Shown piece by piece: positions 1 through 18,126 of a stretch of DNA of 32,000 nt. Both the position numbers and the translations under genes were made by a program. Under the pieces are notes generated by a model. It made no database searches, was not told the DNA's origin, and saw only the letters and a program-made list of their open reading frames with translations. Each line of letters starts with the position of its first letter. Positions within the stretch are counted from its first letter, which is position 1. The DNA is from Trichodesmium erythraeum IMS101 (lineage in GTDB: Bacteria > Cyanobacteriota > Cyanobacteriia > Cyanobacteriales > Microcoleaceae), in the NCBI RefSeq assembly GCF_000014265.1, contig NC_008312.1:5640001-5672000 (forward strand). The letters run 5' to 3'.

Positions 1-261
1 AATTTTAATCTGGGGGATTTTTCTGAGGAAGCTATAGATAATTTACCTATTTTTAATGGTTATAAGGAGAAGTTGCGTAACTGTTCTAAAAAGGTTGACT
101 GTTGGGAAATTTTACGGCTGAAGTGTCAAGGATTTAAGCAAACAGAAATTGCTGAAAAGTTAGGTGTTCATCAGTCTAAAGTTAGTCGCAATTGGAATAC
201 TAAATGCCTGGAATGTGTGAAGAAAATTATTGGGGAAAATAATCTGGATTTAGAGGTTTAG
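1..261 (+). CDS. Sigma-70 region-4-type HTH protein, C-terminal part (5' end outside window)
   Basis: Frame 1 has no stop in bases 1-72, so the track start at 73 (TTG) is probably internal and the gene continues to the left. Residues CWEILRLKCQGFKQTEIAEKLGVHQSKVSRNW fit the helix-turn-helix pattern of sigma-70 region 4 / LuxR-type HTH. A CxxC (CLEC) follows the HTH. Stop TAG at 259-261. The call rests on about 45 residues only. Confidence 0.5.
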   Translation, partial: NFNLGDFSEEAIDNLPIFNGYKEKLRNCSKKVDCWEILRLKCQGFKQTEIAEKLGVHQSKVSRNWNTKCLECVKKIIGENNLDLEV

Positions 262-347
262 AATTAGGTAATTAATATTCCTCCGTTTCTCTATTAACTT
301 TTTACATAATCTGTCTGTCAATCTTTGGATTAATTGTTAACTAAAAT

Positions 348-1190
348 TTGGTTATTTTAACTATGAATAATATTACGGAATCATTGATTTTTCGAGTTCC
401 TTTGTCTCCAAAAAGTCACGCTCTGGCTGAAAATTTTGCTCAACAACAATTGGTTAAAAAACGGGCAAAAGAAGTTTATCTTAATACTCTGGCTGTACAT
501 ATTGGTCAGGATTTTCTGGATGGCTTAGGTTTTGAAACAAATTTGGAGAATGCTGACTCTTTTAATGCTTTTTTGCGGATGACTGAGGATGTGGCTGATG
601 TAATTATTCCAAATTTGGGGGCTGTCGAATTTAGGCGAGTTTTACCGGGGGAAACTGGTTTTTTTATTCCTGATTTTGTCAGAGAAAATAGGCTAGTTTA
701 TGTGGCTGTTGCTTTTGATGAATCTTTGGATTTTGGGGATATTTTAGGGTTTGTTTGTTTGAGTGATTTAACTGAGTCTGATGGTTATATTCCTCTGGAT
801 ATTTTACAACCTGCTGAAAATTTATTGGATTATTTAATGCAGTTAGAAGCGGGTAGGGATTTTCTGTTGAGTGATGATTCTTTGGCTGTGGAATTTCGTG
901 ATGTTGTGGGGGCGGAAACTCGGGAAAAATATTTGGGTTTTATGGCGGCAGCATTAGAGGCTATTTATCGTCAGTCTCCTGATGATGGTGGTAACTGGCG
1001 CGCTCAAGGTGGAAATATTTTGGCGGGTGACTTGCCTTGGGTGGGTAAGGATGCTGAGGAAAGAATGGTTATTGCTTCCAGAGAAAGAGATGAGGCGGAA
1101 GATCCTGTGGTGGAAAATAAGTCGGTGCCCCGTAGTACTCAAAAGTTGGCTAAACGACTTTTGGGAAAACTTAAGGATATTTGGGAGTAG
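348..1190 (+). CDS. DUF1822-family protein (cyanobacteria-restricted, function unknown)
   Basis: 280-codon ORF. The track start is TTG 348, but the first ATG at 363 is the more likely start. Segments YLNTLAV and DVADVIIPNLGAVEFRRV match my recollection of DUF1822 proteins, which commonly sit beside CHAT/TPR genes. No catalytic motif is visible. The C-terminal tail is acidic and likely disordered (RERDEAEDPVVEN). Overlapping ORFs 954-1241(-) and 982-1200(+) are judged spurious. Confidence 0.6.
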   Translation: MVILTMNNITESLIFRVPLSPKSHALAENFAQQQLVKKRAKEVYLNTLAVHIGQDFLDGLGFETNLENADSFNAFLRMTEDVADVIIPNLGAVEFRRVLPGETGFFIPDFVRENRLVYVAVAFDESLDFGDILGFVCLSDLTESDGYIPLDILQPAENLLDYLMQLEAGRDFLLSDDSLAVEFRDVVGAETREKYLGFMAAALEAIYRQSPDDGGNWRAQGGNILAGDLPWVGKDAEERMVIASRERDEAEDPVVENKSVPRSTQKLAKRLLGKLKDIWE

Positions 1191-1368
1191 GTTTGGTTGA
1201 GGTATGGAAACGTATGTATCTAATATTAAAATATTTTTCATTTCGATGTATTTGATAAACGCAGAAATAAGCTGCTAGGGTTTTGTCTGGGAGTTTACCC
1301 AAGTCCTGACTATGTAGTATTTTTGAATAAGTTTTGATTAATTATTATGACTTCAAATAAAAAAAACT

Positions 1369-4300
1369 ATGGATGAACAACGCCTAACCGCATACGCTAA
1401 ACTAATTCAACAACTCCTAAAGTGTCCTGAAGGTCAAGAGTCAAATGTTCTCCAAAACCACCAACACCTCATAGATGAAAGATTAATTCCTGTAATGCAG
1501 AAATATGGTCAATATCTGGCTAAAACAGGTAATGAAAATCAAGCTCAATGTTTTTTGAATATAGCTCAAACCCTAGCACAACAGTTAAATAAGTTGCCAA
1601 ATGCTGTTGCTGAGGAGTCTTACATGACTCTACTGGAACAGCTAAGAACAGCAAAGTTAGAAAATTGCGACGACTCGGCACCTGTCTACCATATCCTAGA
1701 TCACAACCGAGACCTTCTTGATGAAAATATTGCTCGTGTTCTCCCACAATATGCATCTGACTTGATCACCAAACTTACTGCTGAAGATACTGGTGGTTTT
1801 GTTGACTTGATCGAAAGCCTGAGTTATGATTTTTATAGTTTTCCACGGGGCAACAGAAAAGCTAATATAGAAATAGCGATCGCTGGATATTTATTTGTCC
1901 TCAGCTACCGTCAGGAAAATACAGAAAAATGGGCAGGAGCTCAAAATAATCTCGGTGCTGCCTACTTTTACAGAATAAGGGGAGACAAAGCCGAAAATAT
2001 TGAAGCTGCCATTGCTGCATGCAAACAAGCTTTGCTGGTGTTCACCCAAACTGACTTCCCCATGGACTGGGCAACAACTCAAAATAATCTCGGCGGTGCC
2101 TACTTTTACAGAATAAGGGGAGACAAAGCCGAAAATATTGAAGCCGCCATTGCTGCATTCCAACAAGCTTTGCTGGTGTTCACCCAAACTGACTTCCCCA
2201 TCAACTGGGCAGGAACTCAAAATAATCTCGGCCTTGCCTACATTGACAGAATAAGGGGAGACAAAGCCGAAAATATTGAAGCTGCCATTGCTGCATTCCA
2301 ACAAGCTTTGCTGGTGCACACCCAAACAGACTTCCCCATGGACTGGGCAAATACTCAAAATAATCTCGGCATTGCCTACATTTACAGAATAAGGGGAGAC
2401 AAAGCCGAAAATATTGAAGCTGCCATTGCTGCACACGAACAAGCTTTGCTGGTGTACACCCAAACTGACTTCCCCATGGACTGGGCAAATACTCAAAATA
2501 ATCTCGGCATTGCCTACAGTGACAGAATAAGGGGAGACAAAGCCGAAAATATTGAAGCCGCCATTGCTGCATTCCAACAAGCTTTGCTGGTGTTCACCCA
2601 AACTGACTTCCCCATCAACTGGGCAGCAACTCAAAATAATCTCGGCATTGCCTACAGTAAGAGAATAAGGGGAGACAAAGCCGAAAATATTGAAGCCGCC
2701 ATTGCTGCATACGAACAAGCTTTGCTGGTGTACACCCAAACTGACTTCCCCATCAACTGGGCAATGACTCAAAATAATCTCGGCCTTGCCTACATTGACA
2801 GAATAAGGGGAGACAAAGCCGAAAATATTGAAGCTGCCATTGCTGCATTCCAACAAGCTTTGCTGGTGCACACCCAAACAGACTTCCCCATGGACTGGGC
2901 AGGAACTCAAAATAATCTCGGCCTTGCCTACATTTACAGAATAAGGGGAGACAAAGCCGAAAATATTGAAGCCGCCATTGCTGCATACCAACAAGCTTTG
3001 CTGGTGTACACCCAAACTGACTTCCCCATCAACTGGGCAAATACTCAAAATAATCTCGGCATTGCCCACTGGGAGAGAATAAGGGGAGACAAAGCCGAAA
3101 ATATTGAAGCCGCCATTGCTGCATACCAACAAGCTTTGCTGGTGTACACCCAAACTGACTTCCCCATGGACTGGGCAAATACTCAAAATAATCTCGGCAT
3201 TGCCTACAGTGACAGAATAAGGGGAGACAAAGCCGAAAATATTGAAGCTGCCATTGCTGCATACCAACAAGCTTTGCTGGTGTACACCCAAACTGACTTC
3301 CCCATGGACTGGGCAATGACTCAAAATAATCTCGGCGCTGCCTACAGAGACAGAATAAGGGGAGACAAAGCCCAAAATATTGAAGCTGCCATTGCTGCAT
3401 ACCAACAAGCTTTGCTGGTGCGCACCCAAACTGACTTACCCAGGGACTGGGCAATGACTCAAAATAATCTCGGCAATTCCTACAGAGACAGAATAAAGGG
3501 AGACAAAGCCGAAAATATTGAAGCTGCCATTGATGCATACAAAGAAGCTTTGCTGGTGTATACCCAAACTGACTTCCCCATCGACTGGGCAGCAACTCAA
3601 AATAATCTCGGCATTGCCTACAGTGACAGAATAAGGGGAGACAAAGCCGAAAATATTGAAGCCGCCATTTCCTGCTATGATGCTGCTTTAAGAGTCACAA
3701 AACCAGAAAACCTACCAGCAGAGTGTTTACAAACTGCCCGTAACCTAGCTAGCCTTGCCGCAAAACAACAAAACTATGAACTCGCCATTAAGAACTATGA
3801 ACTCGCCATTGCCGCCATAGAGAAAAGTCGAGACTGGATACCCGATGAAATGGCAAGACAAGAAATCTTGCGCAACAATATATATGTCTATGAAAACATG
3901 GTTCAAGCTTGCGTCAAGACCCAACAATATGACAAAGCTTTAGAAACAGTAGAAAGGTTCCGCTGTCGTCGCTTGCTAGATTTAATTCTCGCTAAACATT
4001 TCTACAAAGCTCACGAAGTTCCAGAAGATATCCGCAACTTAGAAGCACAGATGGAAGATAAACAACGAGAAATTGACTGTTTACGTCAGCGGCTAACAAC
4101 CCCCAAAGGTGTTCAGGAACAAACTGGAGGAAGTCCTCATGTCTCCCGGGATGAGTGGGATGATATTACCGAAGAAGTTGAAAAGTTGATAACAGAAAAA
4201 CAGGAAATTTGGCAACAGCTCCGGGAGTTAGACCCCGTATTATCAGAAGGTATTCAAGCGCCCACTGTTAGTGTGGAGACAATGAAAGAATTATTAGAAA

Positions 4301-5715
4301 CTCCACAACAACCAGGAGCAGCATTTGATGTCACCGGATCAAAGAGTCCTTCCCCCCAACAAAAGGGAGGGAAACAAACAAAGGATGTTGCTCTCCTGAG
4401 TTTCTACACAACAGATGATGATACTTATGTTTTTATCCTCACTCAAGCAGGGGTAAAATTGCACTTTTGTCAAGGGCAAGGTTACACCAAACTTCAATTG
4501 TGGTTACGAGAGAGTTGGTTAAAACCATACTCCGAAAGAAATTATTTAGCAGAAAAACATGCTGCAGCAAACTTAGCCAAATGCGATATTGATGCCATTA
4601 AGTCAATTGACTCCAAGCCATCCAAAGTCCTAGTCAAACTCACCGATGGCACAACAACAGAAATTGAACTTGCCCAGTTTGAAACAACCCGGAAACAAGA
4701 GAAACACAAACTATACAAACAATGGCAAGACCAAATGGAAGAGACCTTAAAAGAATTAGCAGACAGACTGCAAATAAACCAACTCATAGAAAAACTCACC
4801 GACATCAAAGAAATTATTCTAGTACCCTTTATGTATCTGCATCAAATTCCTTTGCTAGTGTTGCCCCTAGATAACGGTCAATACTTAGGAGAAAAATTCC
4901 GGGTGAGAACGGCACCCAGCACCCAGGTCTTAACATTTTGTCAGAAACAACCCCCAACTCGAGAAAAAAACCTGCCACTTTACGGTATCGTCGAAAATAC
5001 TAAAAATGATCTACCATATACCCCCACAGAATGTCAATTGGTAGCACAAATTTATGGAGTCGCCCCCGAACACCATCTCAAAGGGAGCAAGGAAGCAACC
5101 AAAGCCAAATATAAAAAGTTGTTGACCAGAGAAAAAGTATTAGGTTTGCTCTCCAGTCACCACGCCACATCTAATTTAACTCAACCTTTAGAGTCTAAGT
5201 TATTACTGGGAGACACGGACTTAACATTAGGGGAGTTGCTCAATGCCACCATTCGTTGCCCCCAGTTAGGAGACCTATTTCTCTCCTGTTGTGAAACAGC
5301 ACTAGGAAATTCAGAATTAACGGACGATATTTTTACACTCAGCGCGGCATTTTTATCAGCAGGAGCATCAAACGTCATCAGTAGTTTGTGGGCAGTCAAT
5401 GACTTGGCAACAACAATATTATCATATTTTTTCCACCGCAACCGGGCGGCAGGTATTCCTAGTGTAGATGCGTTATGGCAAGGACAGATGGAGTTAAAAG
5501 AGTTAACTTTGGCAAAAGCGGAGGAGAATTTGAATAATGCAGAGGCAGTATTAGAAGAATTTGTAGAGGGGAGCGTAGAATATCAGGAAAAGGAGAAAAT
5601 AGCTGATAACTGTCAGGAAATTTATGATTTAGTATTCAAGGCTAAAAAAGTAATAGGGAGAGAAAAACCTTTTGATCATCCTTTTTATTGGGCTGGTTTT
5701 GTTTGTCAAGGATAA
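1369..5715 (+). CDS. Large TPR-like repeat protein with C-terminal CHAT domain (caspase-fold peptidase)
   Basis: 1448-aa ORF with an N-terminal helical region, 13 tandem 46-residue TPR-like units, a coiled-coil/low-complexity linker and a CHAT domain. The CHAT domain keeps the catalytic His (LLSSHHATSN), the catalytic Cys (LFLSCCETALG), the SSLWAVND motif and the typical C-terminal HPFYWAGFVCQG. Confidence 0.9.
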   Translation: MDEQRLTAYAKLIQQLLKCPEGQESNVLQNHQHLIDERLIPVMQKYGQYLAKTGNENQAQCFLNIAQTLAQQLNKLPNAVAEESYMTLLEQLRTAKLENCDDSAPVYHILDHNRDLLDENIARVLPQYASDLITKLTAEDTGGFVDLIESLSYDFYSFPRGNRKANIEIAIAGYLFVLSYRQENTEKWAGAQNNLGAAYFYRIRGDKAENIEAAIAACKQALLVFTQTDFPMDWATTQNNLGGAYFYRIRGDKAENIEAAIAAFQQALLVFTQTDFPINWAGTQNNLGLAYIDRIRGDKAENIEAAIAAFQQALLVHTQTDFPMDWANTQNNLGIAYIYRIRGDKAENIEAAIAAHEQALLVYTQTDFPMDWANTQNNLGIAYSDRIRGDKAENIEAAIAAFQQALLVFTQTDFPINWAATQNNLGIAYSKRIRGDKAENIEAAIAAYEQALLVYTQTDFPINWAMTQNNLGLAYIDRIRGDKAENIEAAIAAFQQALLVHTQTDFPMDWAGTQNNLGLAYIYRIRGDKAENIEAAIAAYQQALLVYTQTDFPINWANTQNNLGIAHWERIRGDKAENIEAAIAAYQQALLVYTQTDFPMDWANTQNNLGIAYSDRIRGDKAENIEAAIAAYQQALLVYTQTDFPMDWAMTQNNLGAAYRDRIRGDKAQNIEAAIAAYQQALLVRTQTDLPRDWAMTQNNLGNSYRDRIKGDKAENIEAAIDAYKEALLVYTQTDFPIDWAATQNNLGIAYSDRIRGDKAENIEAAISCYDAALRVTKPENLPAECLQTARNLASLAAKQQNYELAIKNYELAIAAIEKSRDWIPDEMARQEILRNNIYVYENMVQACVKTQQYDKALETVERFRCRRLLDLILAKHFYKAHEVPEDIRNLEAQMEDKQREIDCLRQRLTTPKGVQEQTGGSPHVSRDEWDDITEEVEKLITEKQEIWQQLRELDPVLSEGIQAPTVSVETMKELLETPQQPGAAFDVTGSKSPSPQQKGGKQTKDVALLSFYTTDDDTYVFILTQAGVKLHFCQGQGYTKLQLWLRESWLKPYSERNYLAEKHAAANLAKCDIDAIKSIDSKPSKVLVKLTDGTTTEIELAQFETTRKQEKHKLYKQWQDQMEETLKELADRLQINQLIEKLTDIKEIILVPFMYLHQIPLLVLPLDNGQYLGEKFRVRTAPSTQVLTFCQKQPPTREKNLPLYGIVENTKNDLPYTPTECQLVAQIYGVAPEHHLKGSKEATKAKYKKLLTREKVLGLLSSHHATSNLTQPLESKLLLGDTDLTLGELLNATIRCPQLGDLFLSCCETALGNSELTDDIFTLSAAFLSAGASNVISSLWAVNDLATTILSYFFHRNRAAGIPSVDALWQGQMELKELTLAKAEENLNNAEAVLEEFVEGSVEYQEKEKIADNCQEIYDLVFKAKKVIGREKPFDHPFYWAGFVCQG
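1930..3670 (+). repeat. 13 tandem copies of a 138-bp (46-codon) unit inside the CHAT gene
   Basis: The period was measured directly: AGACAAAG of RGDK occurs at 1983 and 2121, a shift of 138. The RI(R/K)GDKA(E/Q)NIEAAI motif occurs 13 times. Units share long nucleotide-identical stretches. The last unit degenerates after about 3670. Confidence 0.95.
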
Positions 5716-5834: not shown

Positions 5835-7304
5835 TTAGAATAATGTTTGCATAACTTCCTCAATATTCCGAGAGAAAACTACTTGATGATGCTTCTGTAA
5901 CTTCTCGTCTGAAGAAAAAGGTCTACCTATTAAAGTTTGTTGTTGAATGTAAGTCACAAATGGACGACGCAAAGCTTCATATTTGCTAAAAGCTGCTTCT
6001 ATAGCTGTTATATCATCCCACTTATTTTGCTTATTAATTTCAGCTACCAAAGTAGCGATCGCTGCAGCATCCTCTAGTCCTTGATTAGCTCCTTGAGCAA
6101 TAAATGGTGGCATACCGTGGGCAGCATCTCCCGCCAATACAACCCGTCCTATATTCCATTTAGGCTGGTCTGGAGTTGAAGCCGTGGCATGATGAATATA
6201 ATACGGACGTTGTATGATCTGATCTGGGTCAGATAAAGCTACCAACTGTTGAATTATCTCTGGAAAATCTGCTTTTTTCAACTCTTCTACAGCAATATCA
6301 ATTAACTCTTCTCCCGATTTTTCTAGCAATGACTCTAATGGGAAAGCTCCATAGAGTAAATATCCAAACTGACAAGGTTGAAAAGAAAATAAAATGATAC
6401 TGGGAACATCACTGTCGGGAATTTGATGATTTTTGATAGTCACTATCCTAGAAGAACTATGCAAAAATCTCTCCTTTATTTCTTTTGAAAGTGCTTCTGC
6501 CACCTGAAGCATTCCACCACTGCCTATTGCGCCAACACCACAATATTCTGGTTTACTGTATCCACTGTCTGGAGTATTCTTATAGATGACTTGGCGGACC
6601 CGAGAGTTAATTCCATCCATTCCTAACAATAGTTTAGCACGAATTGAGGTGATTTCTGATTCAGGAAATTGGGAGGAATTCACGCTGCTGCTTTCATTCT
6701 TTTCTTGTTGATCATCCCAGTGAGCATAGGAGTTAGTTTCTACTTTCTGATTAGACACAAAATCCGCTCTAACACATTGAAATTCAGGCTCATTAACTAC
6801 ATTAAAACAATGATGATTAGCTTTGACCCGCTCAACTGGTAATAGTTGTCTTAGTTGAGTTTGTAACTCGTACCAAGGAATAGAGACTCTACCCTCCCCG
6901 TACTTTTGAAAATATTCATCGTATCCCAGGGGAATAGAACGAATTTTTTGCCCGTCCACATTTATGACATGCCATTCTGGTGAAGCCTGTTTTTTTTCTG
7001 TCTCGGTTTTCTGACTTACCTGTGGTGAATTATTTGGTTGATCAATAGTAGCTGTAATATTCTCGTAAGCTTTAGCATCAATATATTTAAGCGCTTTCAA
7101 GCCATTGGGTAAAAGATCAATAACCTGACCAACTTTACGGAAAGCCCTGGTTTGGTCGAGAACAATAATATTTTCAATTCCACGTTGGCGTAAACCCAGG
7201 GCAGTCGCTAACCCCACTGGGCCAGCACCGACGATCGCGACATCATAATCAATTTTTGGACTGGACTTTTCCCCTAACAATGACTCTGTTTGTTTTAGCT
7301 TCAT
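5835..7304 (-). CDS. FAD-dependent monooxygenase (aromatic-ring hydroxylase / UbiH-salicylate hydroxylase type), copy 1
   Basis: 489 aa. It has the N-terminal dinucleotide fold VAIVGAGPVGLATA, the DG motif GMDGINSRVRQ and the GD motif LAGDAAHGMPPFIAQGANQGLEDA. Confidence 0.85.
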   Translation of the reverse strand: MKLKQTESLLGEKSSPKIDYDVAIVGAGPVGLATALGLRQRGIENIIVLDQTRAFRKVGQVIDLLPNGLKALKYIDAKAYENITATIDQPNNSPQVSQKTETEKKQASPEWHVINVDGQKIRSIPLGYDEYFQKYGEGRVSIPWYELQTQLRQLLPVERVKANHHCFNVVNEPEFQCVRADFVSNQKVETNSYAHWDDQQEKNESSSVNSSQFPESEITSIRAKLLLGMDGINSRVRQVIYKNTPDSGYSKPEYCGVGAIGSGGMLQVAEALSKEIKERFLHSSSRIVTIKNHQIPDSDVPSIILFSFQPCQFGYLLYGAFPLESLLEKSGEELIDIAVEELKKADFPEIIQQLVALSDPDQIIQRPYYIHHATASTPDQPKWNIGRVVLAGDAAHGMPPFIAQGANQGLEDAAAIATLVAEINKQNKWDDITAIEAAFSKYEALRRPFVTYIQQQTLIGRPFSSDEKLQKHHQVVFSRNIEEVMQTLF

Positions 7305-7773: not shown

Positions 7774-8262
7774 CTAGTCAGAATTTCCTACTTTTTGGGC
7801 AATGAGGCGGTCAAGAGAAAATGAACCACCGCCATTAAAAAAACAGAATAAATACATAGTTGCGTAGAGTGATGCTGTCTCAAAAGAAGAAACTACAAAC
7901 CCATCTTCCCGCAGATGAAAATATATAGCTACCATCATAACAGATAATAACGCGATCGCAGCCGGTCGTGTCAGTAGTCCCAAAATCAGCAATATGGCCC
8001 CAACTATTTGGGTATAGGCGGCACAGTAGGTTAGAAACGTCGGGAATGGAAAACCCAGTGTCTCAGAAACAACATGAGATGCAAAACCCTCAACATCGGC
8101 AAGCTTATCAAAACCATTATGAATCATTATGACCCCAGAAATTACCCGTAATAACGTCCACCCTATTTGAAATATCAGATTAGAATCTTGATTAGAAGCG
8201 AAAATCAAAGATAGGAAATTCAGAGGTTTTTTATTTGTGATATTTGAAGTACTGTCTGTCAT
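7774..8262 (-). CDS. DoxX-family integral membrane protein
   Basis: 162 aa with about four hydrophobic helices. The DoxX-like signature is IHNGFDKL ... GFPFP ... ILLILGLLTRPAAIALL. Confidence 0.8.
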   Translation of the reverse strand: MTDSTSNITNKKPLNFLSLIFASNQDSNLIFQIGWTLLRVISGVIMIHNGFDKLADVEGFASHVVSETLGFPFPTFLTYCAAYTQIVGAILLILGLLTRPAAIALLSVMMVAIYFHLREDGFVVSSFETASLYATMYLFCFFNGGGSFSLDRLIAQKVGNSD

Positions 8263-8797: not shown

Positions 8798-10267
8798 CTA
8801 CAATAATGTTTGCATAGCCTCCTCAATATTCCGAGAGAAAACTGCTTGATGATACTTCTGTAACTTCTCAGATGAAGAAAAAGGCCTACCTATTAAAGTT
8901 TGTTGTTGAATGTAAGTCACAAATGGACGACGCAAAGCCTCATATTTGCTAAAAGCTGCTTCTATCGCTGTTATATCATCCCACTTATTTTGCTTATTAA
9001 TCTCAGCCACCAAAGTAGCGATCGCTGCAGCATCCTCTAGTCCTTGGTTAGCTCCTTGACCAATAAACGGTGGCATACCATGAGCAGCATCTCCCGCCAA
9101 TACAACCCGTCCCATATTCCATTTAGGCTGTTCTGGAGTAGAAACAGTGGCATGATGAGTATAATACGGACGTTGTATAATCTGATCTGGGTCAGATAAA
9201 GCTACCAACTGTTGAATTATCTCTGGAAAGCCTGCTTTTTTTAACTCTTCTACGGCAATATCAATTAACTCTTCTCCCGATTTTTCAAGCAATGACTCTA
9301 AAGGGAAAGCTCCATGGAGGAGATATCCAAACTGACAAGGTTGAAGAGAAAATAAAATCATTCTGGGAACATCACTATCGGGAATTTGATTATTTTTGAT
9401 AGTTACTATATTAGGAGAACTATGAAAAAATCTTTCCTTAATTTCTTCTGAAAGTGCTTCTGCGACCTGAAGTGTTCCACCATTGCCAATTGCACCAATA
9501 CCAGAATATTCTGGTTGACTATATCCACTGTATAGAGTATTTTTATAGATTACTTGACGGACCTTAGAGTTAATTCCATCTACTCCTAATAATAGTTTAG
9601 CACGAATTGATGTAATTTCTGATTCCGGATATTGGGAGGAATTCACACCACTGATCTTATTCTTTTCTTGTGGATCATTCCAGTGAGAATAGGGGTTAGT
9701 TTCTACTTCCTGATCAGACAGAAAATCTGCTCTCACACATTCAAATTCTGGCTCAGTAACTACACTAATACAACGATGATTAGCTTTAACACACTCAACT
9801 GGTAATAGTTTTCTTAGTTGAGTTTGTAACTCGTACCAATAAATAGGGACTCTACCCTCCTCGTAATTTTGAAAATATCCATCGTATCTCAGGGGAAAAG
9901 GACAAATTTTTTGCCCATTCACATTTATGACATCCCATTCTGGCGGAGGCTGTTTTTTTTCTGTTCCAGTTTTCTGACTTGTCTGTAGTGAATTATTTGG
10001 TTGATCAATAGTAGCTTTAATATTCTTGTAAGCTTTAGAATCAATATATTTAAGAGCTTTTAAGCCATTGGGTAAAAGATCAATAACCTGACCAACTTTA
10101 CGGAAAACCTTAGTTTGGTCGAGAACAATAATATTTTCAATTCCACGTTGGCGTAAACCGAGAGCAGTTGCTAGTCCCACTGGGCCAGCACCGACGATCG
10201 CTACATCATAATCAATTTTTGGACTGGAGTTTTCCCCTAAAAATGGTTCTGTCTGTTGTAGTTTCAT
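8798..10267 (-). CDS. FAD-dependent monooxygenase, copy 2 (paralog of 5835-7304)
   Basis: 489 aa, the same length and motifs as copy 1 (VAIVGAGPVGLATA, GVDGINSKVRQ, LAGDAAHGMPPFIGQGANQGLEDA). It is collinear with copy 1 without indels. Confidence 0.85.
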   Translation of the reverse strand: MKLQQTEPFLGENSSPKIDYDVAIVGAGPVGLATALGLRQRGIENIIVLDQTKVFRKVGQVIDLLPNGLKALKYIDSKAYKNIKATIDQPNNSLQTSQKTGTEKKQPPPEWDVINVNGQKICPFPLRYDGYFQNYEEGRVPIYWYELQTQLRKLLPVECVKANHRCISVVTEPEFECVRADFLSDQEVETNPYSHWNDPQEKNKISGVNSSQYPESEITSIRAKLLLGVDGINSKVRQVIYKNTLYSGYSQPEYSGIGAIGNGGTLQVAEALSEEIKERFFHSSPNIVTIKNNQIPDSDVPRMILFSLQPCQFGYLLHGAFPLESLLEKSGEELIDIAVEELKKAGFPEIIQQLVALSDPDQIIQRPYYTHHATVSTPEQPKWNMGRVVLAGDAAHGMPPFIGQGANQGLEDAAAIATLVAEINKQNKWDDITAIEAAFSKYEALRRPFVTYIQQQTLIGRPFSSSEKLQKYHQAVFSRNIEEAMQTLL

Positions 10268-10390: not shown

Positions 10391-12385
10391 TTATGGAACC
10401 TGCCAAATTTTAATAGTTTTATCATTACTCCCACTTGCTAAACTCCTACCATCCTGACTAAACACCACTGAAAACACATCGCTAGAATGACCATTAAGAG
10501 TTTCCAACAACTCCCCAGTCACAGCATCCCACAAATTAATCACGCCATTGCGATACCCAGCAGCAACTATTTTTCCATTCGGACTAAACCCCACTGACAA
10601 AACATCACTCACACCATACTTCAAATGTTGTATCGGTGTAGAAATAAGTTCCCCTCCATAAACCTGCCATAACTTAACAGTACCATCCCGACTACCACTG
10701 CCTAATACTCCTCCATCCGGACTAAAACTTAGCGATCGCACCCAGTCTGAATGACCTTGAATGCTAAATAATTCTTTTGCCTTTTGCAAGTCCCATATTT
10801 TAATAGTTTGGTCGCGGCCGCCACTTGCTAAAATTCCACCATCTTTATTAAAAGCAACAGTATAAACCCGGTCTTGATGTCCGGCCAAAGTAAACCAGCG
10901 TCTTGCCTTCTGCAAATTCCAAATTTCAATAGCTCTATCCCTACCTCCACTCGCTAACATTTGATTATCCGGACTAAACGCCACCGTATCCACCCAGTCA
11001 GAATGACCAAGAAGAGTAAACCAACGTTTGCCTTTTTTCATATCCCAAATTTCAATAGTTTTATCCCGACTGCCACTCGCCAACATTTGATTATCCGGAC
11101 TAAACGCTACCGAACTTACCGAGTTACCATGACCAGTGAGAGTAAACCAACGTTTACCTTTAGTCATATCCCAAATTTCAATAGTTTTATCCCGACTGCC
11201 ACTCGCCAAAATTTGATTATCCGGACTAAATGCTACTGAATTTACCGAGTCAAAATGTCCAGTCAAAGTCAAGACACATTTCCAAGTTGACTGTTGTGGT
11301 TGAGGAAGAACTGTCGGCTGTATAACATAAGGGGGCGCAGTGATCGAATTTGTAGATTGTTTTGTTGGCTGTTTGGGAGACGTATATGTCGCCATCGTTG
11401 GCCTATTAGGAATGGGAGAGCTTGTCGATCTTTTAGTTGTGGAAGCTGTCGGTGGAAAAGTATTAGGAGCAGTAGGAAATGCCTGAGTTGGGTTTAACTC
11501 CTTCATTACTTCTAGAGCAGACTGGTAACGTATTTGGGGGTTAGTCATCAGCATTTTATCAATAACTTTTCCGAGTTTACTATTAAAAGGCTGATTTAAA
11601 TAATCTCGCCATACCCATTTATCTGCCATTACATCAAATAAATCAAAAGGAGATATTTGAGTCAACAAATAAATACAAGTTACTCCCAAACTATAAATAT
11701 CACTAGCAAAAATAGCATGACCTCTTAATTGTTCTGGAGCCACATATTCTGGACTACCAATTATTGTTCCTGGCTGCATTAAAGAAGTTCCAGTAATAAC
11801 TTTAGCCGCACCAAAATCAACTAAAACTAATTTATTAGTATTAGTCATCCATCCTATAGTTTCTGGAGTAGAACTACGACAAATAATATTTTCTGGTTTC
11901 AGGTCTCGATGAATTACTTTCTGTTCGTGAATAAACTTTAAAACTGGTAATAATTCATTCAACATTTGTTGAATTTGATTACTATCAAAAGGACCATTTT
12001 TTATTGACTCTTGAGCTAAATTAGAACCATCAATAAATTCCTGTACTAAATATTGATAATTATCCTGTTCAAAGTGAGCTAATAATTCTGGAATTTGTGG
12101 ATGTTTACCAAGTTCATCTAATCTAACTGCCTCTTGTTGAAATAACTCAGCAGCCTTTTTTGGATCCCCAGTATTTTGAGGTAAAAATTGTTTAATTACA
12201 CAGGGAGGATGAGAAGGTTTATCTTCATCCACAGCAAAAAAAGTCCGACCAAACCCACCCCTACCGATAGGTTTTATGGGGCGATATCTTTCTCTGAGCA
12301 GTAACTTTGACCCACAGGCGATGCAATATAATGTCCCTTCAGGATTTTGGGGATTTTGGCATTGAGGATTTAAGCAATAACTCAT
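10391..12385 (-). CDS. Ser/Thr protein kinase with N-terminal 4-Cys zinc ribbon and C-terminal WD40 repeats
   Basis: 664 aa. The zinc ribbon is CLNPQC...CIACGSKL. The Hanks kinase motifs are GRGGFG, HRDLKPENI, DFG and SPEYVAPE. A Pro/Thr/Ser-rich linker follows, then about seven 42-residue WD40 units (GH...SPD...LASGSRDKTIEIWD). Confidence 0.9.
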   Translation of the reverse strand: MSYCLNPQCQNPQNPEGTLYCIACGSKLLLRERYRPIKPIGRGGFGRTFFAVDEDKPSHPPCVIKQFLPQNTGDPKKAAELFQQEAVRLDELGKHPQIPELLAHFEQDNYQYLVQEFIDGSNLAQESIKNGPFDSNQIQQMLNELLPVLKFIHEQKVIHRDLKPENIICRSSTPETIGWMTNTNKLVLVDFGAAKVITGTSLMQPGTIIGSPEYVAPEQLRGHAIFASDIYSLGVTCIYLLTQISPFDLFDVMADKWVWRDYLNQPFNSKLGKVIDKMLMTNPQIRYQSALEVMKELNPTQAFPTAPNTFPPTASTTKRSTSSPIPNRPTMATYTSPKQPTKQSTNSITAPPYVIQPTVLPQPQQSTWKCVLTLTGHFDSVNSVAFSPDNQILASGSRDKTIEIWDMTKGKRWFTLTGHGNSVSSVAFSPDNQMLASGSRDKTIEIWDMKKGKRWFTLLGHSDWVDTVAFSPDNQMLASGGRDRAIEIWNLQKARRWFTLAGHQDRVYTVAFNKDGGILASGGRDQTIKIWDLQKAKELFSIQGHSDWVRSLSFSPDGGVLGSGSRDGTVKLWQVYGGELISTPIQHLKYGVSDVLSVGFSPNGKIVAAGYRNGVINLWDAVTGELLETLNGHSSDVFSVVFSQDGRSLASGSNDKTIKIWQVP
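10915..11240 (-). repeat. Near-identical 126-bp WD40-coding units
   Basis: TATCCCAAATTTCAATAGTTTTATCCCGACTGCCACTCGCCAA starts at 11041 and again at 11167, a shift of 126. A more diverged third unit starts at about 10915. Confidence 0.7.
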
Positions 12386-12594
12386 TTTAACAAGATTGGG
12401 CTAATATCTCTATGTTAATTATTTTCAGGAACTGATACCAATTGATTTTAAAGATGTCACAAATAGTTTCAAACTTTAAATGTCAAGTAATTTATTAATA
12501 TTAGTGTACATTAAAAGTATGGTATTAGGGGTGGGTTTTCTACTTCCGCACTAAAAACAAATTTTGACCTCCTAATTATAGGAATTACTATATT

Positions 12595-12942
12595 CCTAAT
12601 TTTCAATTTATATAATATTCGTGAGACGCAATTCTCAACCAAGAAATATATAAGAATAAATAAAGTCTCTTCAATGAGATTATTTTTTTGTGATACACAC
12701 CATTAACTAATTAGCAAATCGTGAAAGTAGAGTGTTTAAGATTTGCAATTTATTGCAAATCACCCAATCCTAATTTTCAATTTATATAATATTCGTGAGA
12801 CGCAATTCTCAACCAAGAAATATATAAGAATAAATAAAGTCTCTTCAATGAGATTATTTTTTTGTGATACACACCATTAACTAATTAGCAAATCGTGAAA
12901 GTAGGGTCTTTAAGATTAGCAATAAATTGCAAATCACCCAAT
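12595..12942. repeat. Tandem duplication of a 174-bp non-coding unit
   Basis: Copy 1 is 12595-12768 and copy 2 is 12769-12942. The first ~137 nt are identical by eye, and differences cluster in the last ~35 nt. Each copy carries a TATAAT box, a weak hairpin plus T7 run, and a 9-bp-arm palindrome (ATTTGCAAT-TT-ATTGCAAAT at 12741-12760). Confidence 0.9.
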
Positions 12943-13496
12943 CCTATAAAATGTACAATCTAATATTATAAAAAATGTAAAAAAGCAGATTATTCTACTT
13001 TTATAGCATCATCATCCTAGCAATTTAGACTAACAAATTATCCTACAAGCTTAGTAGGATACATTTATTCCTTTATTCCTTAATTTTTATATCTAGCTCT
13101 GAGAAAATACTCGCAAAGTTATCTCTCAGGAACAAAAACTAGATACTTTTTTAAAATACCTAAAAAGGCTAAAGTTAACATTAATAATTATAGCATAAAA
13201 TTAAAATATATGGCAAAATCAGGATAGTTAAAGTAATTGTCAAAAAATCATATATCAAATACGACTTTTTTAGAGCTAATTGTTCAAGTAAATATTAAGA
13301 GGCTAAATTACTTGCTATACTTAGGTTGAGCGAGTTATTTACCACTCAGCCCCAAATTACTAAAAGCTAAGTAAAATAAGACTTTTAGCTAAGTTCACAA
13401 ATCAACCCTTACCAGGAAAAGTCTATATATTCCCGCCCTAAAGCGCGGAGTATTATAAATGCCAAAATCCAACTTTTAGATCAATTTATAATACCA

Positions 13497-15408: not shown

Positions 15409-18126
15409 ATGACAGATCAACCGAAAAACTCTACTGATATTATTCGAGCTGGAAATCAACTACCATCTCCTCCAGAATGGTTAAAAATTGGCGCCAAAGT
15501 CTATTCTCCTGAACATGGAATAGGTCAAATTACAGCCGTATTAGGAAAACGTTTAATTGTAGACTTTTTAGAAAGCCATAAACCAGTACATTTTTTAGAT
15601 TGGCAAATAGCAATTAAGAAGAAAGAGATTAATCCCAGAGATGGTAAAAATTTTAATCATCAAAAATTACAAGAAGCCAAAAAATCAAAGATATCCTCAG
15701 CAGAAATAGAAGCTATTCCTCGACCTGTCTTTCAAAAAATAGCCCAAGAATTTTTAGATAATTTAGTAGCAATAGATAACACGCCACCAACTCCAGGAAA
15801 ACTCTATCCTTTACCAGAAGATTTACCAATTACTCTCAAAAAAACTCTGATTATACACAATATTAGACAACTCTATGAACATCAAATTGAATCATTAACT
15901 GCTCTGAGAAAAGGATTAGATCTTTGTATTTTTACTCCCACAGCTTCTGGCAAAACTCTCTGTTATAACCTCGCCATTTTAGAGTCATGTTTACAACAAC
16001 CTGAGACGAGAGCATTATATATTTTTCCTCTCAAAGCACTGGCATTAGACCAAACCCAAAAGCTAGAAAGAATGGTCTCATATTTTCCCAAAAATTCTGT
16101 CAAAATTGGATTAATTACAGGTGACATATCTTCAGAAAACAGGAAAAAATTATTTATCCCCAACCCACCCAATATTTTAGGTGTCAGTCCAGATTTATTA
16201 CATTATCAACTATATAAAATTACCAGCAAAGATAGAGAAAAATGGCGCCAATTTTTTCAACAACTCCGATATGTAGTTATAGATGAATCTCATACTTATA
16301 TAGGAGCTTTTGGTGCTCATTTTGCCAACTTAATTCGACGGTTAAAAATGGTAGTAGATATCGTAGGCGGTAGTTCAGAAAAATTACAATTTATCTTTAG
16401 TTCAGCAACTATTGGAAATCCCGCAGAAATGGCAATGAGATTTAGCGATCGCTCCCACCAACCAGAACGACTTCATCTAATATCAAAAAGTGGTGCTGAT
16501 AGCTCGGGTAAAACAATTTTATTTCTGGAACCAAGCCAGATTGCTAATCCTGATTCTTGCAAAATAATTCTATCTTGGTTACGCTATAATTTGACTGGAG
16601 TAGTATTTTCTAATTCCAGGAGTGCGGTCAAAAAATTGTTAGGAATAATTAAACGAACAGCTGATAAAAATGGAGAGAGTTATTTAGCAGATAAAATAGC
16701 AATTTTTTATGGTTCTTTAGAGTTTCATAGGCGACAGGATATTATCCAAAAATTACAAACTGGTGTAGTCAAAGTTATTCTTTCTACTTCTGCATTAGAA
16801 GCAGGAATTGACTTACCTGAACTTGACTGTTGTTTAGTCCGTGGTTATCCAGGTAGTTTAATGTCTTGGAAACAAAGAATTGGTCGGGTAGGAAGGAAAA
16901 ATCCAGGGTTAATTATGTTTTTACCAGTAGCTCAAAATACTTTAGATAATTTCTATGGAAATAAACCAGATTTATTATTAAATGGTGAGGCAGAAAGTGC
17001 TACTTTTAATCCTAATTATCCAACAATTTTGGGCAAACATTTAGAATGTAGTTGTGTCGAAAGTGGAATACCTTTGAGTGAAATAAAAAAACGTTTTGGA
17101 GAAGTAGCTAAAGTAATTGTTGATAGCTTATTAAAACAGGAAAAAATATATATTAATAACTCTAATCAACTTTGGGGGTATGGTTATCCTCATCGGAATG
17201 TTAATTTGCGTGGTCATGCTCAAAATGATGTGGATTTAATCAATGTTAATACTGGAAAAAGCTTTGAAAAAATGCCAATGAGTCTGGCGCATAAAGAAGT
17301 ATTTCCAGGAGCAATTTATTGTGCTCAAAATTATGATGGTGATTTAATAAGCTATCATTCTGAAAATCTTGACTTAGATCAAAAACAAGCAATTTTAAAA
17401 CCTTTAGCTAAAAATTATAACTTAGAAACTGTACCAAATAATCAGTTAGCTATTAAAGAGATTCAGCAACTAGAGATACCTCAAATAATTCAAACAAATA
17501 TTTCCCACGCGAGATTAAGATTAAGTCTATTTTGGGGAGAAGTTACATTTTTAGTAAATGGTTATCAGCTACTTGCTACTAAATATGAAAAAGGAGTTGA
17601 AAAGACTACAGTTTTAGATGAAAAGAATTTCGATCCTCCCTATCAAACTCAATATCAAGCTCCAGTTCTTAAGGTTGAAATAAATGATGCTTTTAGTCAA
17701 GCTATACGGGAAAGTATTCGAGAAATTCAGTATAAAATTAAGGATAAATATAAAACAAAAATTCCAGATAATTTGAAATGTTTATGGAGTTGTAATCCTG
17801 ATTTTATTGCATTGCATAGTATGGGTCATCAAATCATATCTGCTATTCCATTAGTAGTGTTAAGTTCGAGTCAAGATGTCGAATTCTTTGTTCAGCGACA
17901 AGGAGGAGAAACTATAGGTTATTTTTTTGATACTTGTGATGGTGGAAATGGAGCGAGTGAGGCAATTTTTAATCAACTGTTGAAGTTTGTTCATAAGGCA
18001 ATAGCATTAGCAAAAAATTGTGATTGTGAATATGGTTGTCCCCGGTGTTTAACTCACCATCGTTGCCCTCAAAAAAATAAAGGTTTGTATAAAGATTTAG
18101 GGTTGTTGCTATTGCAAGCTATATAA
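15409..18126 (+). CDS. DExH-box helicase with C-terminal DUF1998 (MrfA-type zinc-binding) domain and N-terminal Tudor/SH3-like module
   Basis: 905 aa. Helicase motifs are motif I TPTASGKT (15934-15957), motif II DESH (16282-16293), SAT and motif VI QRIGRVGR. The DUF1998-like C-terminus is FFDTCDGGNGASE followed by CDCEYGCPRCLTHHRCPQ. The N-terminal residues EWLKIGAKVYSPEHGIGQITAVLGKRLIVDF resemble CarD/Mfd-RID and PcrA C-terminal Tudor-like modules. Confidence 0.85.
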   Translation: MTDQPKNSTDIIRAGNQLPSPPEWLKIGAKVYSPEHGIGQITAVLGKRLIVDFLESHKPVHFLDWQIAIKKKEINPRDGKNFNHQKLQEAKKSKISSAEIEAIPRPVFQKIAQEFLDNLVAIDNTPPTPGKLYPLPEDLPITLKKTLIIHNIRQLYEHQIESLTALRKGLDLCIFTPTASGKTLCYNLAILESCLQQPETRALYIFPLKALALDQTQKLERMVSYFPKNSVKIGLITGDISSENRKKLFIPNPPNILGVSPDLLHYQLYKITSKDREKWRQFFQQLRYVVIDESHTYIGAFGAHFANLIRRLKMVVDIVGGSSEKLQFIFSSATIGNPAEMAMRFSDRSHQPERLHLISKSGADSSGKTILFLEPSQIANPDSCKIILSWLRYNLTGVVFSNSRSAVKKLLGIIKRTADKNGESYLADKIAIFYGSLEFHRRQDIIQKLQTGVVKVILSTSALEAGIDLPELDCCLVRGYPGSLMSWKQRIGRVGRKNPGLIMFLPVAQNTLDNFYGNKPDLLLNGEAESATFNPNYPTILGKHLECSCVESGIPLSEIKKRFGEVAKVIVDSLLKQEKIYINNSNQLWGYGYPHRNVNLRGHAQNDVDLINVNTGKSFEKMPMSLAHKEVFPGAIYCAQNYDGDLISYHSENLDLDQKQAILKPLAKNYNLETVPNNQLAIKEIQQLEIPQIIQTNISHARLRLSLFWGEVTFLVNGYQLLATKYEKGVEKTTVLDEKNFDPPYQTQYQAPVLKVEINDAFSQAIRESIREIQYKIKDKYKTKIPDNLKCLWSCNPDFIALHSMGHQIISAIPLVVLSSSQDVEFFVQRQGGETIGYFFDTCDGGNGASEAIFNQLLKFVHKAIALAKNCDCEYGCPRCLTHHRCPQKNKGLYKDLGLLLLQAI

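Follow-up and report, generated by a model that had tools for sequence, protein, structure and literature searches.

Organization of the locus

We analyzed a window of 32,000 nucleotides from Trichodesmium erythraeum IMS101 (NC_008312.1, positions 5,640,001 to 5,672,000 of the forward strand), at the left end of which lie three co-oriented genes coding for a sigma-like protein, a protein of the DUF1822 family, and a large protease in which tetratricopeptide repeats (TPR) precede a caspase-fold CHAT domain (Table 1). An initial annotation made from the sequence had proposed that the protease acts through the DUF1822 protein on a sigma factor, by analogy with the CRISPR-associated Craspase system. 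Our analyses indicate that the three genes very likely constitute one functional module, conserved across cyanobacteria, through which a protease sensor probably elicits a transcriptional response. Open reading frame (ORF) calls confirmed the layout first described, with intergenic gaps of 86 bp between the sigma-like and DUF1822 genes (101 bp when counted from the ATG discussed below) and 178 bp between the DUF1822 and TPR-CHAT genes. Terminator-like or promoter-like sites were not present above chance level in either gap. Scans of the 32-kb window detected no cas domain, CRISPR-like array, or Rfam match (CRISPR repeat included), in agreement with the initial annotation, and cas genes and CRISPR were also absent from the related loci that carry Pfam labels. 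The anti-phage defense models of PADLOC-DB 2.0 matched neither DUF1822 nor TPR-CHAT, and the sigma-like protein gave only a chance-level match to IetA (0.004).

The TPR-CHAT protein (1448 aa) consists of a helical N-terminal domain that is kept in all partners of its subfamily, a repeat array, a region of ~330 aa that includes the low-complexity stretch PQQPGAAFDVTGSKSPSPQQKGGKQTKD, and the C-terminal CHAT domain. The latter was identified by Pfam PF12770 (1.2e-34, residues 1125 to 1448, 120.5 bits against a cut-off of 24) and the repeats by TPR_10 (8e-36). As first reported, the catalytic dyad is intact: His1265, the second His of LLSSHHATS, and Cys1308, the second Cys of FLSCCETALG, align with the dyad of the Csx29 chains in the PDB and are invariant in all CHAT partners examined. 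The number of repeats, already given as 13, is exact, since an NNLG motif recurs every 46 residues from position 193 to position 745; Tandem Repeats Finder reported 12.5 copies of 138 bp (92%). The 11 internal units, whose DNA is ~92% identical, differ by 399 nonsynonymous and 53 synonymous codon differences, and 82% of the nonsynonymous ones fall at 9 of the 46 positions (2, 3, 6, 13, 16, 17, 34, 35, and 41). A binding surface undergoing diversification would be expected to show such a pattern, which supports the earlier suggestion that the array may serve as a sensor, presumably of a ligand.

Highly similar repeats with hypervariable positions occur in NLR-like proteins of fungi and bacteria. 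Both those repeats and the window array are made of near-identical tandem units with differences that are almost all nonsynonymous and limited to a few positions; unlike NLR-like proteins, the window protein has no NTPase domain, and its repeats are fused to a protease. TPR-CHAT orthologues vary in repeat number and in length, from 1091 to 1625 aa. A 512-aa antisense ORF (1891-3429, minus strand) and shorter ones inside the repeat array are artefacts of the repeat periodicity and not genes.

The second gene belongs to the DUF1822 family, as anticipated (PF08852, 4.2e-52, 178 bits against a cut-off of 25), but its product is probably shorter than the 280 aa first given. That length requires initiation at an in-frame TTG at position 348, whereas all orthologues, as well as the NCBI annotation, begin with the ATG of position 363, which yields 275 aa; the orthologous N-termini read MN(N/S)ITES. 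A Trichodesmium metagenome-assembled genome (MAG) encodes a protein with 99% identity to it, and an exact-sequence look-up of the window protein returned no record. Its Pfam match is confined to profile positions 1 to 174 of 370, the C-terminal half of the model being missing in this short form. In an AlphaFold2 model with a predicted local distance difference test (pLDDT) score of 83 and a predicted template modeling (pTM) score of 0.81, an alpha/beta domain is followed by a helical region, a disordered linker that corresponds to the acidic tail noted previously, and a terminal helix (residue ranges in Table 1). All short-form proteins keep an R-[DE]-E motif in the otherwise variable linker and a terminal helix of the pattern LAxxLLxKLxxIW, which is found in 32 of 85 DUF1822 proteins. 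Linker and helix take the place of the beta-rich domain with which the long forms end, and hybrid proteins of 425 to 478 aa contain an internal helix motif followed by that domain. The statement that the protein has no recognizable catalytic motif holds for known motifs, but a set of polar residues is nearly invariant in the family (nearly invariant positions: H19, K36, Y39, N41, T42, D79, G86, E89, R91, R110, and Y113).

One DUF1822 protein of 201 aa, P0027 from the MAG of Microcoleaceae cyanobacterium MO_207.B10, has a sigma-like N-terminus fused in frame to DUF1822 from about residue 75; this fusion is a deletion or an assembly artefact.

The sigma-like gene is cut by the window edge, as recognized at the outset. 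The similarity of the encoded fragment, which had been described as a sigma-70 region-4-type helix-turn-helix (HTH) protein, is only weak and mostly below curated cut-offs: HTH_23 (2e-5) is the one match that clears them, with Sigma70_r4_2 (0.008) and TIGR02937 (5e-5) below. A full-length sequence was available from an orthologue of 261 aa (P0038) on a 99% identical Trichodesmium MAG contig that supplied the sequence left of the window (L001:6288-7073). With this protein all Pfam families remained below threshold, and TIGR02937 matched residues 84 to 240 at 1.1e-6 (28.4 bits against a cut-off of 42.9). Alignment of a 42-member family profile with Escherichia coli RpoE by hhalign (RpoE sequence checked against PDB entry 1OR7) covered RpoE residues 17 to 175 with an E value of 2.4e-5 and a probability of 76%; the aligned RpoE residues include region 2, and the family HTH matches RpoE region 4.2. 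Foldseek searches with an AlphaFold2 model of the orthologue (pLDDT 64) returned nearly exclusively sigma factors, mostly of the extracytoplasmic function (ECF) type (SigH, SigL, SigK, RpoE, SigW, CnrH, and AlgU), at E values from 0.014 to ~2. Because three independent methods, TIGR02937, hhalign, and Foldseek, gave matches collinear with two-domain ECF sigma factors, it is probable, but not proven, that the protein is a divergent member of this class. The full-length ORF, in which the initial annotation had expected regions 2 and 4, is collinear with both, albeit with a weak signal.

Sigma70_r4_2 scored between 0.008 and 0.04 for the Trichodesmium sigma-like protein and below 0.01 in 5 of the 42 family members, and Sigma70_r4 reached 1.6e-5 in one. 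A profile of the narrow sigma-like clade retrieved little beyond that clade and generic HTH repeats from 1.84 billion representative proteins; its tie to the wider family came from iterated hidden Markov models (HMMs) built on the fetched loci described below. The family has a conserved Cys cluster around region 4 (C203, C209, C244, and C247 in P0038; codons at 109-243 of the window), of the pattern RNCxKKVDC...KCLxC in the Trichodesmium clade and NCHxR..P..NCQ...RxC in the wider family. A role of this cluster in metal binding or redox chemistry is possible and would not be typical of ECF sigma factors. Across Trichodesmium, Okeania, and Dapis, the ~140 bp that precede the sigma-like start codon (L001:6150-6287, with equivalents in L004 and L009-L020, just left of the window) are conserved beyond the level of coding DNA and include TTAGATTTTAGATTTTT and AAACTGCA-N7-GCATCGAAT. 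We found no conserved RNA fold in this region, and its motif recurs neither elsewhere in the window or the fetched loci nor ahead of the CHAT gene; therefore, it gives no clue to a regulon. An adaptor domain common to the N-termini of the TPR-CHAT (MDEQ...LI...) and sigma-like proteins was considered and rejected (hhalign probability 0.1%).

Table 1. Positions of the three genes and of the elements that they encode (numbering of the window)
Feature	Position	Strand	Evidence
Sigma-like gene, 3' end (86 codons and stop; region-4-type HTH, Cys cluster)	1-261	+	ORF call, domain search
DUF1822 gene, short form, 275 aa from ATG	363-1190	+	PF08852 4e-52, orthologue starts
DUF1822 N-terminal alpha/beta domain, aa 10-145, common to the whole family	390-797	+	AlphaFold2 model, conservation
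DUF1822 disordered acidic linker, aa 226-252; candidate protease cleavage region	1038-1118	+	pLDDT <50
Conserved R-[DE]-E motif of the DUF1822 linker, R242-D243-E244	1086-1094	+	Kept across short forms
DUF1822 C-terminal amphipathic helix, aa 257-274, LAKRLLGKLKDIW	1131-1184	+	pLDDT >90
TPR-CHAT protease gene, 1448 aa	1369-5715	+	ORF call, domain search
TPR-CHAT N-terminal helical domain, aa 1-184, MDEQRLTAYAKLIQQLL...	1369-1920	+	Conserved in subfamily partners
Array of 13 TPR-like repeats, 46 aa / 138 bp each; presumed ligand-binding sensor	1921-3714	+	
CHAT caspase-fold peptidase domain, aa 1112-1448	4702-5712	+	PF12770 1.2e-34
Catalytic His1265	5161-5163	+	
Catalytic Cys1308	5290-5292	+	

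Conservation of the gene triad and pairing of DUF1822 tails with protease types

A scan of one genome per species identified 511 DUF1822 relatives. Such modules are common among filamentous and colonial cyanobacteria, often with several per genome and some on conjugative plasmids. We fetched 80 loci, called their ORFs, and classified the products with iterated home-built HMMs. The gene order, on whose conservation the initial annotation had made its proposal depend, is kept. A sigma-like gene lies directly upstream of DUF1822 in 79 of the 83 cases with enough upstream sequence (80 loci and the window), at a median distance of 7 bp (35 bp or less in 62 of 80, and 86 to 101 bp in the window). 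A same-strand CHAT gene follows within 5 kb in 60 of the 72 cases with enough downstream sequence, and in 51 of these 60 within 600 bp. Some of the loci of the Trichodesmium/Okeania clade that lack CHAT are on contigs ending just past DUF1822, most likely because of an assembly break at the repeat array. In Trichodesmium MAG_R02 (L009:2487-5981), two sigma-like/DUF1822 pairs lie in tandem, and the contig ends after the second DUF1822 gene, probably at the array as well. In the Trichodesmium MAG that supplied the full-length sigma-like gene (L001:733-2583), a gene for a NACHT-family NTPase precedes that gene by ~3.7 kb, with an ABC transporter and a Bmp gene in between.

Two types of protease are found at the 60 CHAT loci. 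In 47 of them the CHAT domain is N-terminal and is followed by CHASE2, STAND/WD40, or other domains, and in 13, including the window, TPR precede a C-terminal CHAT. An hhalign comparison of the two types aligned the catalytic core only (probability 91%), and an HMM of the N-terminal type does not match the window protein. The window CHAT domain is 74 to 89% identical to those of Okeania and Dapis and 41 to 42% identical to those of Microcoleus, Phormidium, and a Nostoc plasmid copy, compared with 24 to 28% for other CHAT proteins of the same loci. By these sequence relationships, the TPR-CHAT partners form a subfamily of their own, which recurs in Trichodesmium/Okeania/Dapis, in Microcoleus/Phormidium, and on a conjugative plasmid of Nostoc. 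On that plasmid, pn3 of Nostoc sp. UHCC 0926 (NZ_CP117771.1; L092:6309-12687), the short DUF1822 and TPR-CHAT genes are found beside a site-specific integrase. In the RefSeq annotation, the sigma-like and DUF1822 genes of pn3 overlap by 4 bp, and the three products are labeled hypothetical protein, DUF1822 family protein, and CHAT domain-containing tetratricopeptide repeat protein.

The length of DUF1822 tracks the type of protease next to it, with 253 to 280 aa beside TPR-CHAT and 286 to 478 aa beside the N-terminal type, without overlap. For 44 DUF1822 genes, 5 kb or more of flanking sequence was available on both sides; in this set, the TPR-CHAT subfamily is present at 12 of the 17 loci whose DUF1822 has the terminal-helix motif and at 1 of the 27 others (Fisher p = 3e-6, not corrected for phylogeny). 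Some loci with hybrid DUF1822 proteins hold both protease types. This modular pattern of tails is the best evidence here for a contact between DUF1822 and the protease, in which the tail would be a contact or substrate element.

The form with N-terminal CHAT corresponds to a system described computationally by Kaur, Iyer, Burroughs, and Aravind (eLife 2021; PMC8195603). That paper reports neighborhoods of caspase, ECF sigma, and DUF1822 genes, with the proposal that caspase activation leads to a transcriptional response, and its supplementary tables include DUF1822-annotated proteins preceded by an HTH gene and followed by EACC2+CASPASE genes. Thus, the concept of an ECF sigma output controlled by a protease is not new but was predicted in 2021 for this sister form. 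The two forms have in common the same sigma-like family directly upstream of the DUF1822 family, followed by a CHAT/caspase gene. In the system of Kaur et al., the caspase is N-terminal (EACC2 and caspase) and precedes a variable C-terminal sensor (CHASE2, STAND/WD40, or kinase); in the window, the order is reversed, with a helical N-terminal domain, 13 TPR units, and a C-terminal CHAT of a different subfamily. The arrangement of short DUF1822 and TPR-CHAT was not found in the text or in the accessible supplementary tables of that paper. What the present work adds is this second architecture, the DUF1822 tail modules paired with it, and specific residues.

The same source (PMC8195603) regards DUF1822 as a TPR protein and labels some DUF1822-annotated proteins TRADD-N+TPRs; natural HTH+TRADD-N+TPRs fusions annotated as DUF1822 are also listed there. 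In our AlphaFold2 model the N-domain is alpha/beta and not TPR, and a Pfam scan of 43 DUF1822 members gave no match to TRADD_N, PD-(D/E)XK, or TPR. Fuller loci of the sister system (L089:10001-20377 and L091:10001-20642) encode a sigma-like protein, DUF1822, CHAT-CHASE2, DUF928, and a two-partner secretion (TPS) domain protein that has or adjoins a second CHAT domain.

A proposed protease-gated sigma factor and its alternatives

We propose that TPR-CHAT, once activated by a ligand, cleaves DUF1822 in its acidic linker and thereby frees the sigma factor, a tentative scheme to which we give somewhat less than even odds (about 0.45). The sigma-like protein and DUF1822 would be made together, the latter as a partner or adaptor holding the sigma factor inactive. 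TPR-CHAT would be a latent protease whose 13-unit array, to judge from the substitutions at its hypervariable surface positions, may sense a ligand. The DUF1822 helix LAKRLLGKLKDIW, joined by the linker to the globular body, is predicted from the co-occurrence data to dock onto the TPR-CHAT subfamily. The activated His1265/Cys1308 site would then cut the linker between residues 226 and 256, possibly near R242-D243-E244, and the released sigma factor would turn on a set of genes.

Protease-gated sigma factors have been demonstrated experimentally in Craspase (Csx29/Csx30/RpoE), CalpL/CalpT/CalpS, and SAVED-CHAT/PCaspase/PCc-sigma. Type III-E Craspase (Cas7-11, Csx29, Csx30, Csx31, and RpoE) has a TPR-CHAT protease with a His/Cys dyad as in the window and a small partner that is cleaved and controls an ECF-type sigma factor, so that its parts resemble the window triad, as the initial annotation had pointed out. 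The CHAT domain of the window protein is, however, no more than distantly related to Csx29. The window has no Cas7-11 or CRISPR array, its protease scores 61.3 bits with the Csx29 model NF041237 (cut-off 300) over the CHAT core only, and DUF1822 is unrelated to Csx30 by sequence and fold searches. The locus is therefore not a member of the Craspase family. Craspase is activated by target RNA through Cas7-11; in the window, the one candidate for a sensor is the long hypervariable TPR array. In the type III-B system CalpL-CalpT-CalpS, a SAVED-Lon protease cleaves the anti-sigma factor CalpT and releases the ECF sigma factor CalpS. This system and SAVED-CHAT/PCaspase/PCc-sigma follow the same logic of a signal-activated protease acting on a sigma factor and its binding partner, but they differ from the window by their Lon or SAVED domains, activation by cyclic oligoadenylate, unrelated partners, and association with CRISPR. 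In the DegS/RseP-RseA-sigmaE pathway, a classical case of regulated anti-sigma proteolysis, an ECF-type sigma gene is tightly coupled to the next gene, as is the ECF-like gene of the window, and proteolytic release takes place such as we propose. In contrast with that pathway, the window proteins are all predicted to be cytoplasmic, no anti-sigma domain is present, and the protease has a caspase fold.

Several observations weigh against this scheme. The sigma assignment is below threshold in each method (28 bits against 42.9 for TIGR02937, 76% probability with hhalign, E of 0.014 or more with Foldseek). Pfam Sigma70_r2 was matched by none of the 42 family members at E below 0.01, PDB profile searches with the family retrieved no sigma factor, and a search of the window found no repeated promoter motif and no candidate regulon. 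As for DUF1822, no anti-sigma domain was recognized in 43 members, in which only DUF1822 was detected (FecR_C appeared in 2 of the 43 at E 0.13, not significant). DUF1822 profiles run against the PDB at E up to 10 retrieved no chain, and no likeness to Csx30 or CalpT was found. The nearly invariant polar residues suggest an active or ligand-binding site and are left unexplained by a model in which DUF1822 is a passive substrate. At 5 of the 17 helix-motif loci, TPR-CHAT is absent within 10 kb. Finally, in Dapis and Okeania, toxin-antitoxin genes (1.3 to 3.6 kb; L002:11520-14067 and L004:10946-12577), of the UPF0175/DUF3368, PIN, MNT/HepT, and DUF2283 types, are inserted between DUF1822 and TPR-CHAT; therefore, cotranscription of the two is not obligatory.

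Autoprocessing is the alternative that fares best, although we regard it as unlikely. The caspase would cut its own polypeptide after sensing, and DUF1822 would be an uncleaved adaptor passing the signal to the ECF sigma factor. Autoprocessing together with a scaffold is what Kaur et al. (PMC8195603) proposed for the sister form. The ~330-aa region with PQQPGAAFDVTGSKSPSPQQKGGKQTKD could provide a self-cleavage site, and the strong conservation of the DUF1822 N-domain resembles that of a module for interaction or enzymatic activity. The part of DUF1822 that covaries with the protease, a disordered linker with a terminal helix, suggests a docking element or substrate more readily than a rigid scaffold, but cleavage in cis and in trans fit the present results alike.

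It is improbable, in our judgment, that the upstream gene codes for a plain HTH transcription factor, not a sigma factor, which together with DUF1822 would form a two-gene regulator linked to TPR-CHAT loosely or only by regulation. The scarcity of Pfam sigma matches in the family, with Sigma70_r4_2 in few members and Sigma70_r2 in none, and the PDB searches argue for such a protein, and the toxin-antitoxin insertions that part the genes in some genomes are consistent with a loose link. Collinearity with both ECF domains by three independent methods and the co-occurrence of the CHAT subfamily with the DUF1822 tail across distant lineages and on a plasmid speak against this reading.

Nor do we favor, as a similarly improbable option, a role of DUF1822 as an effector or enzyme, for instance of nuclease-like fold, that is activated or regulated by the protease, with the sigma-like protein as a local regulator of the operon only. 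D79, E89, and R91 are nearly invariant on a beta-hairpin, along with other invariant polar residues, and the top matches of the DUF1822 model in Foldseek, none of which is significant, include restriction-endonuclease folds (HincII, PvuII, Hjc resolvase, and splicing endonuclease). Against a nuclease fold, these matches do not exceed a probability of 0.33 or fall below an E value of 0.24 (Csx30 is not listed among them), and there is no Pfam or PDB profile match. The coupling of DUF1822 to the sigma-like gene in 79 of 83 cases is also the classic layout of sigma factor/regulator pairs.

A chance neighborhood of a sigma/DUF1822 pair and one of the abundant TPR-CHAT proteins of filamentous cyanobacteria, which the frequent presence of several CHAT genes per locus and gaps of up to 3.6 kb might suggest, is highly improbable given that the same CHAT subfamily stands beside short DUF1822 in no fewer than three divergent lineages, as well as on a conjugative plasmid, and is nearly absent (1/27) where the helix motif is lacking.

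If the protease does gate the sigma factor, the locus would represent a CRISPR-independent counterpart of Craspase and CalpL signaling and an instance of caspase-like transcription control in a bloom-forming nitrogen fixer. Population crashes of Trichodesmium have been linked to programmed cell death. A CRISPR-independent immune or cell-fate sensor, in which the TPR array would bind a variable invader or self ligand, DUF1822 would be cut, and the sigma factor would drive a defense or death program, is a doubtful extension of our proposal. The plasmid copy with its integrase, the toxin-antitoxin insertions, and the tandem pairs are compatible with a mobile conflict-type module, which they fit but do not prove. 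Should the sensor interpretation be correct, the DUF1822 tails would be interchangeable plugs wiring one sigma/adaptor pair to different protease sensors. The general prediction is here narrowed to tail modules paired with protease types, a candidate cleavage region at residues 226 to 256, a docking helix at residues 257 to 274, and nine hypervariable positions.

Remainder of the window

Outside the module, the content of the window is that of an ordinary chromosomal segment. A gene for a Ser/Thr protein kinase-WD40 fusion (10391-12385, minus strand) lies a few kilobases from the module, as does a gene (15409-18126, plus strand) for a DEAD/DEAH helicase whose C-terminal domain is of the zinc-binding MrfA type; no link of either to the module was found. 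Two flavin adenine dinucleotide (FAD)-dependent monooxygenase paralogues of 489 aa (5835-7304 and 8798-10267, both on the minus strand) are 85% identical and flank a gene for a DoxX membrane protein (7774-8262, minus strand); the pair appears to stem from a recent local duplication. The AT-rich intergenic DNA that separates the kinase-WD40 gene from a FAD oxidase gene contains two tandem copies of a 174-bp unit with 97% identity (12594-12946).

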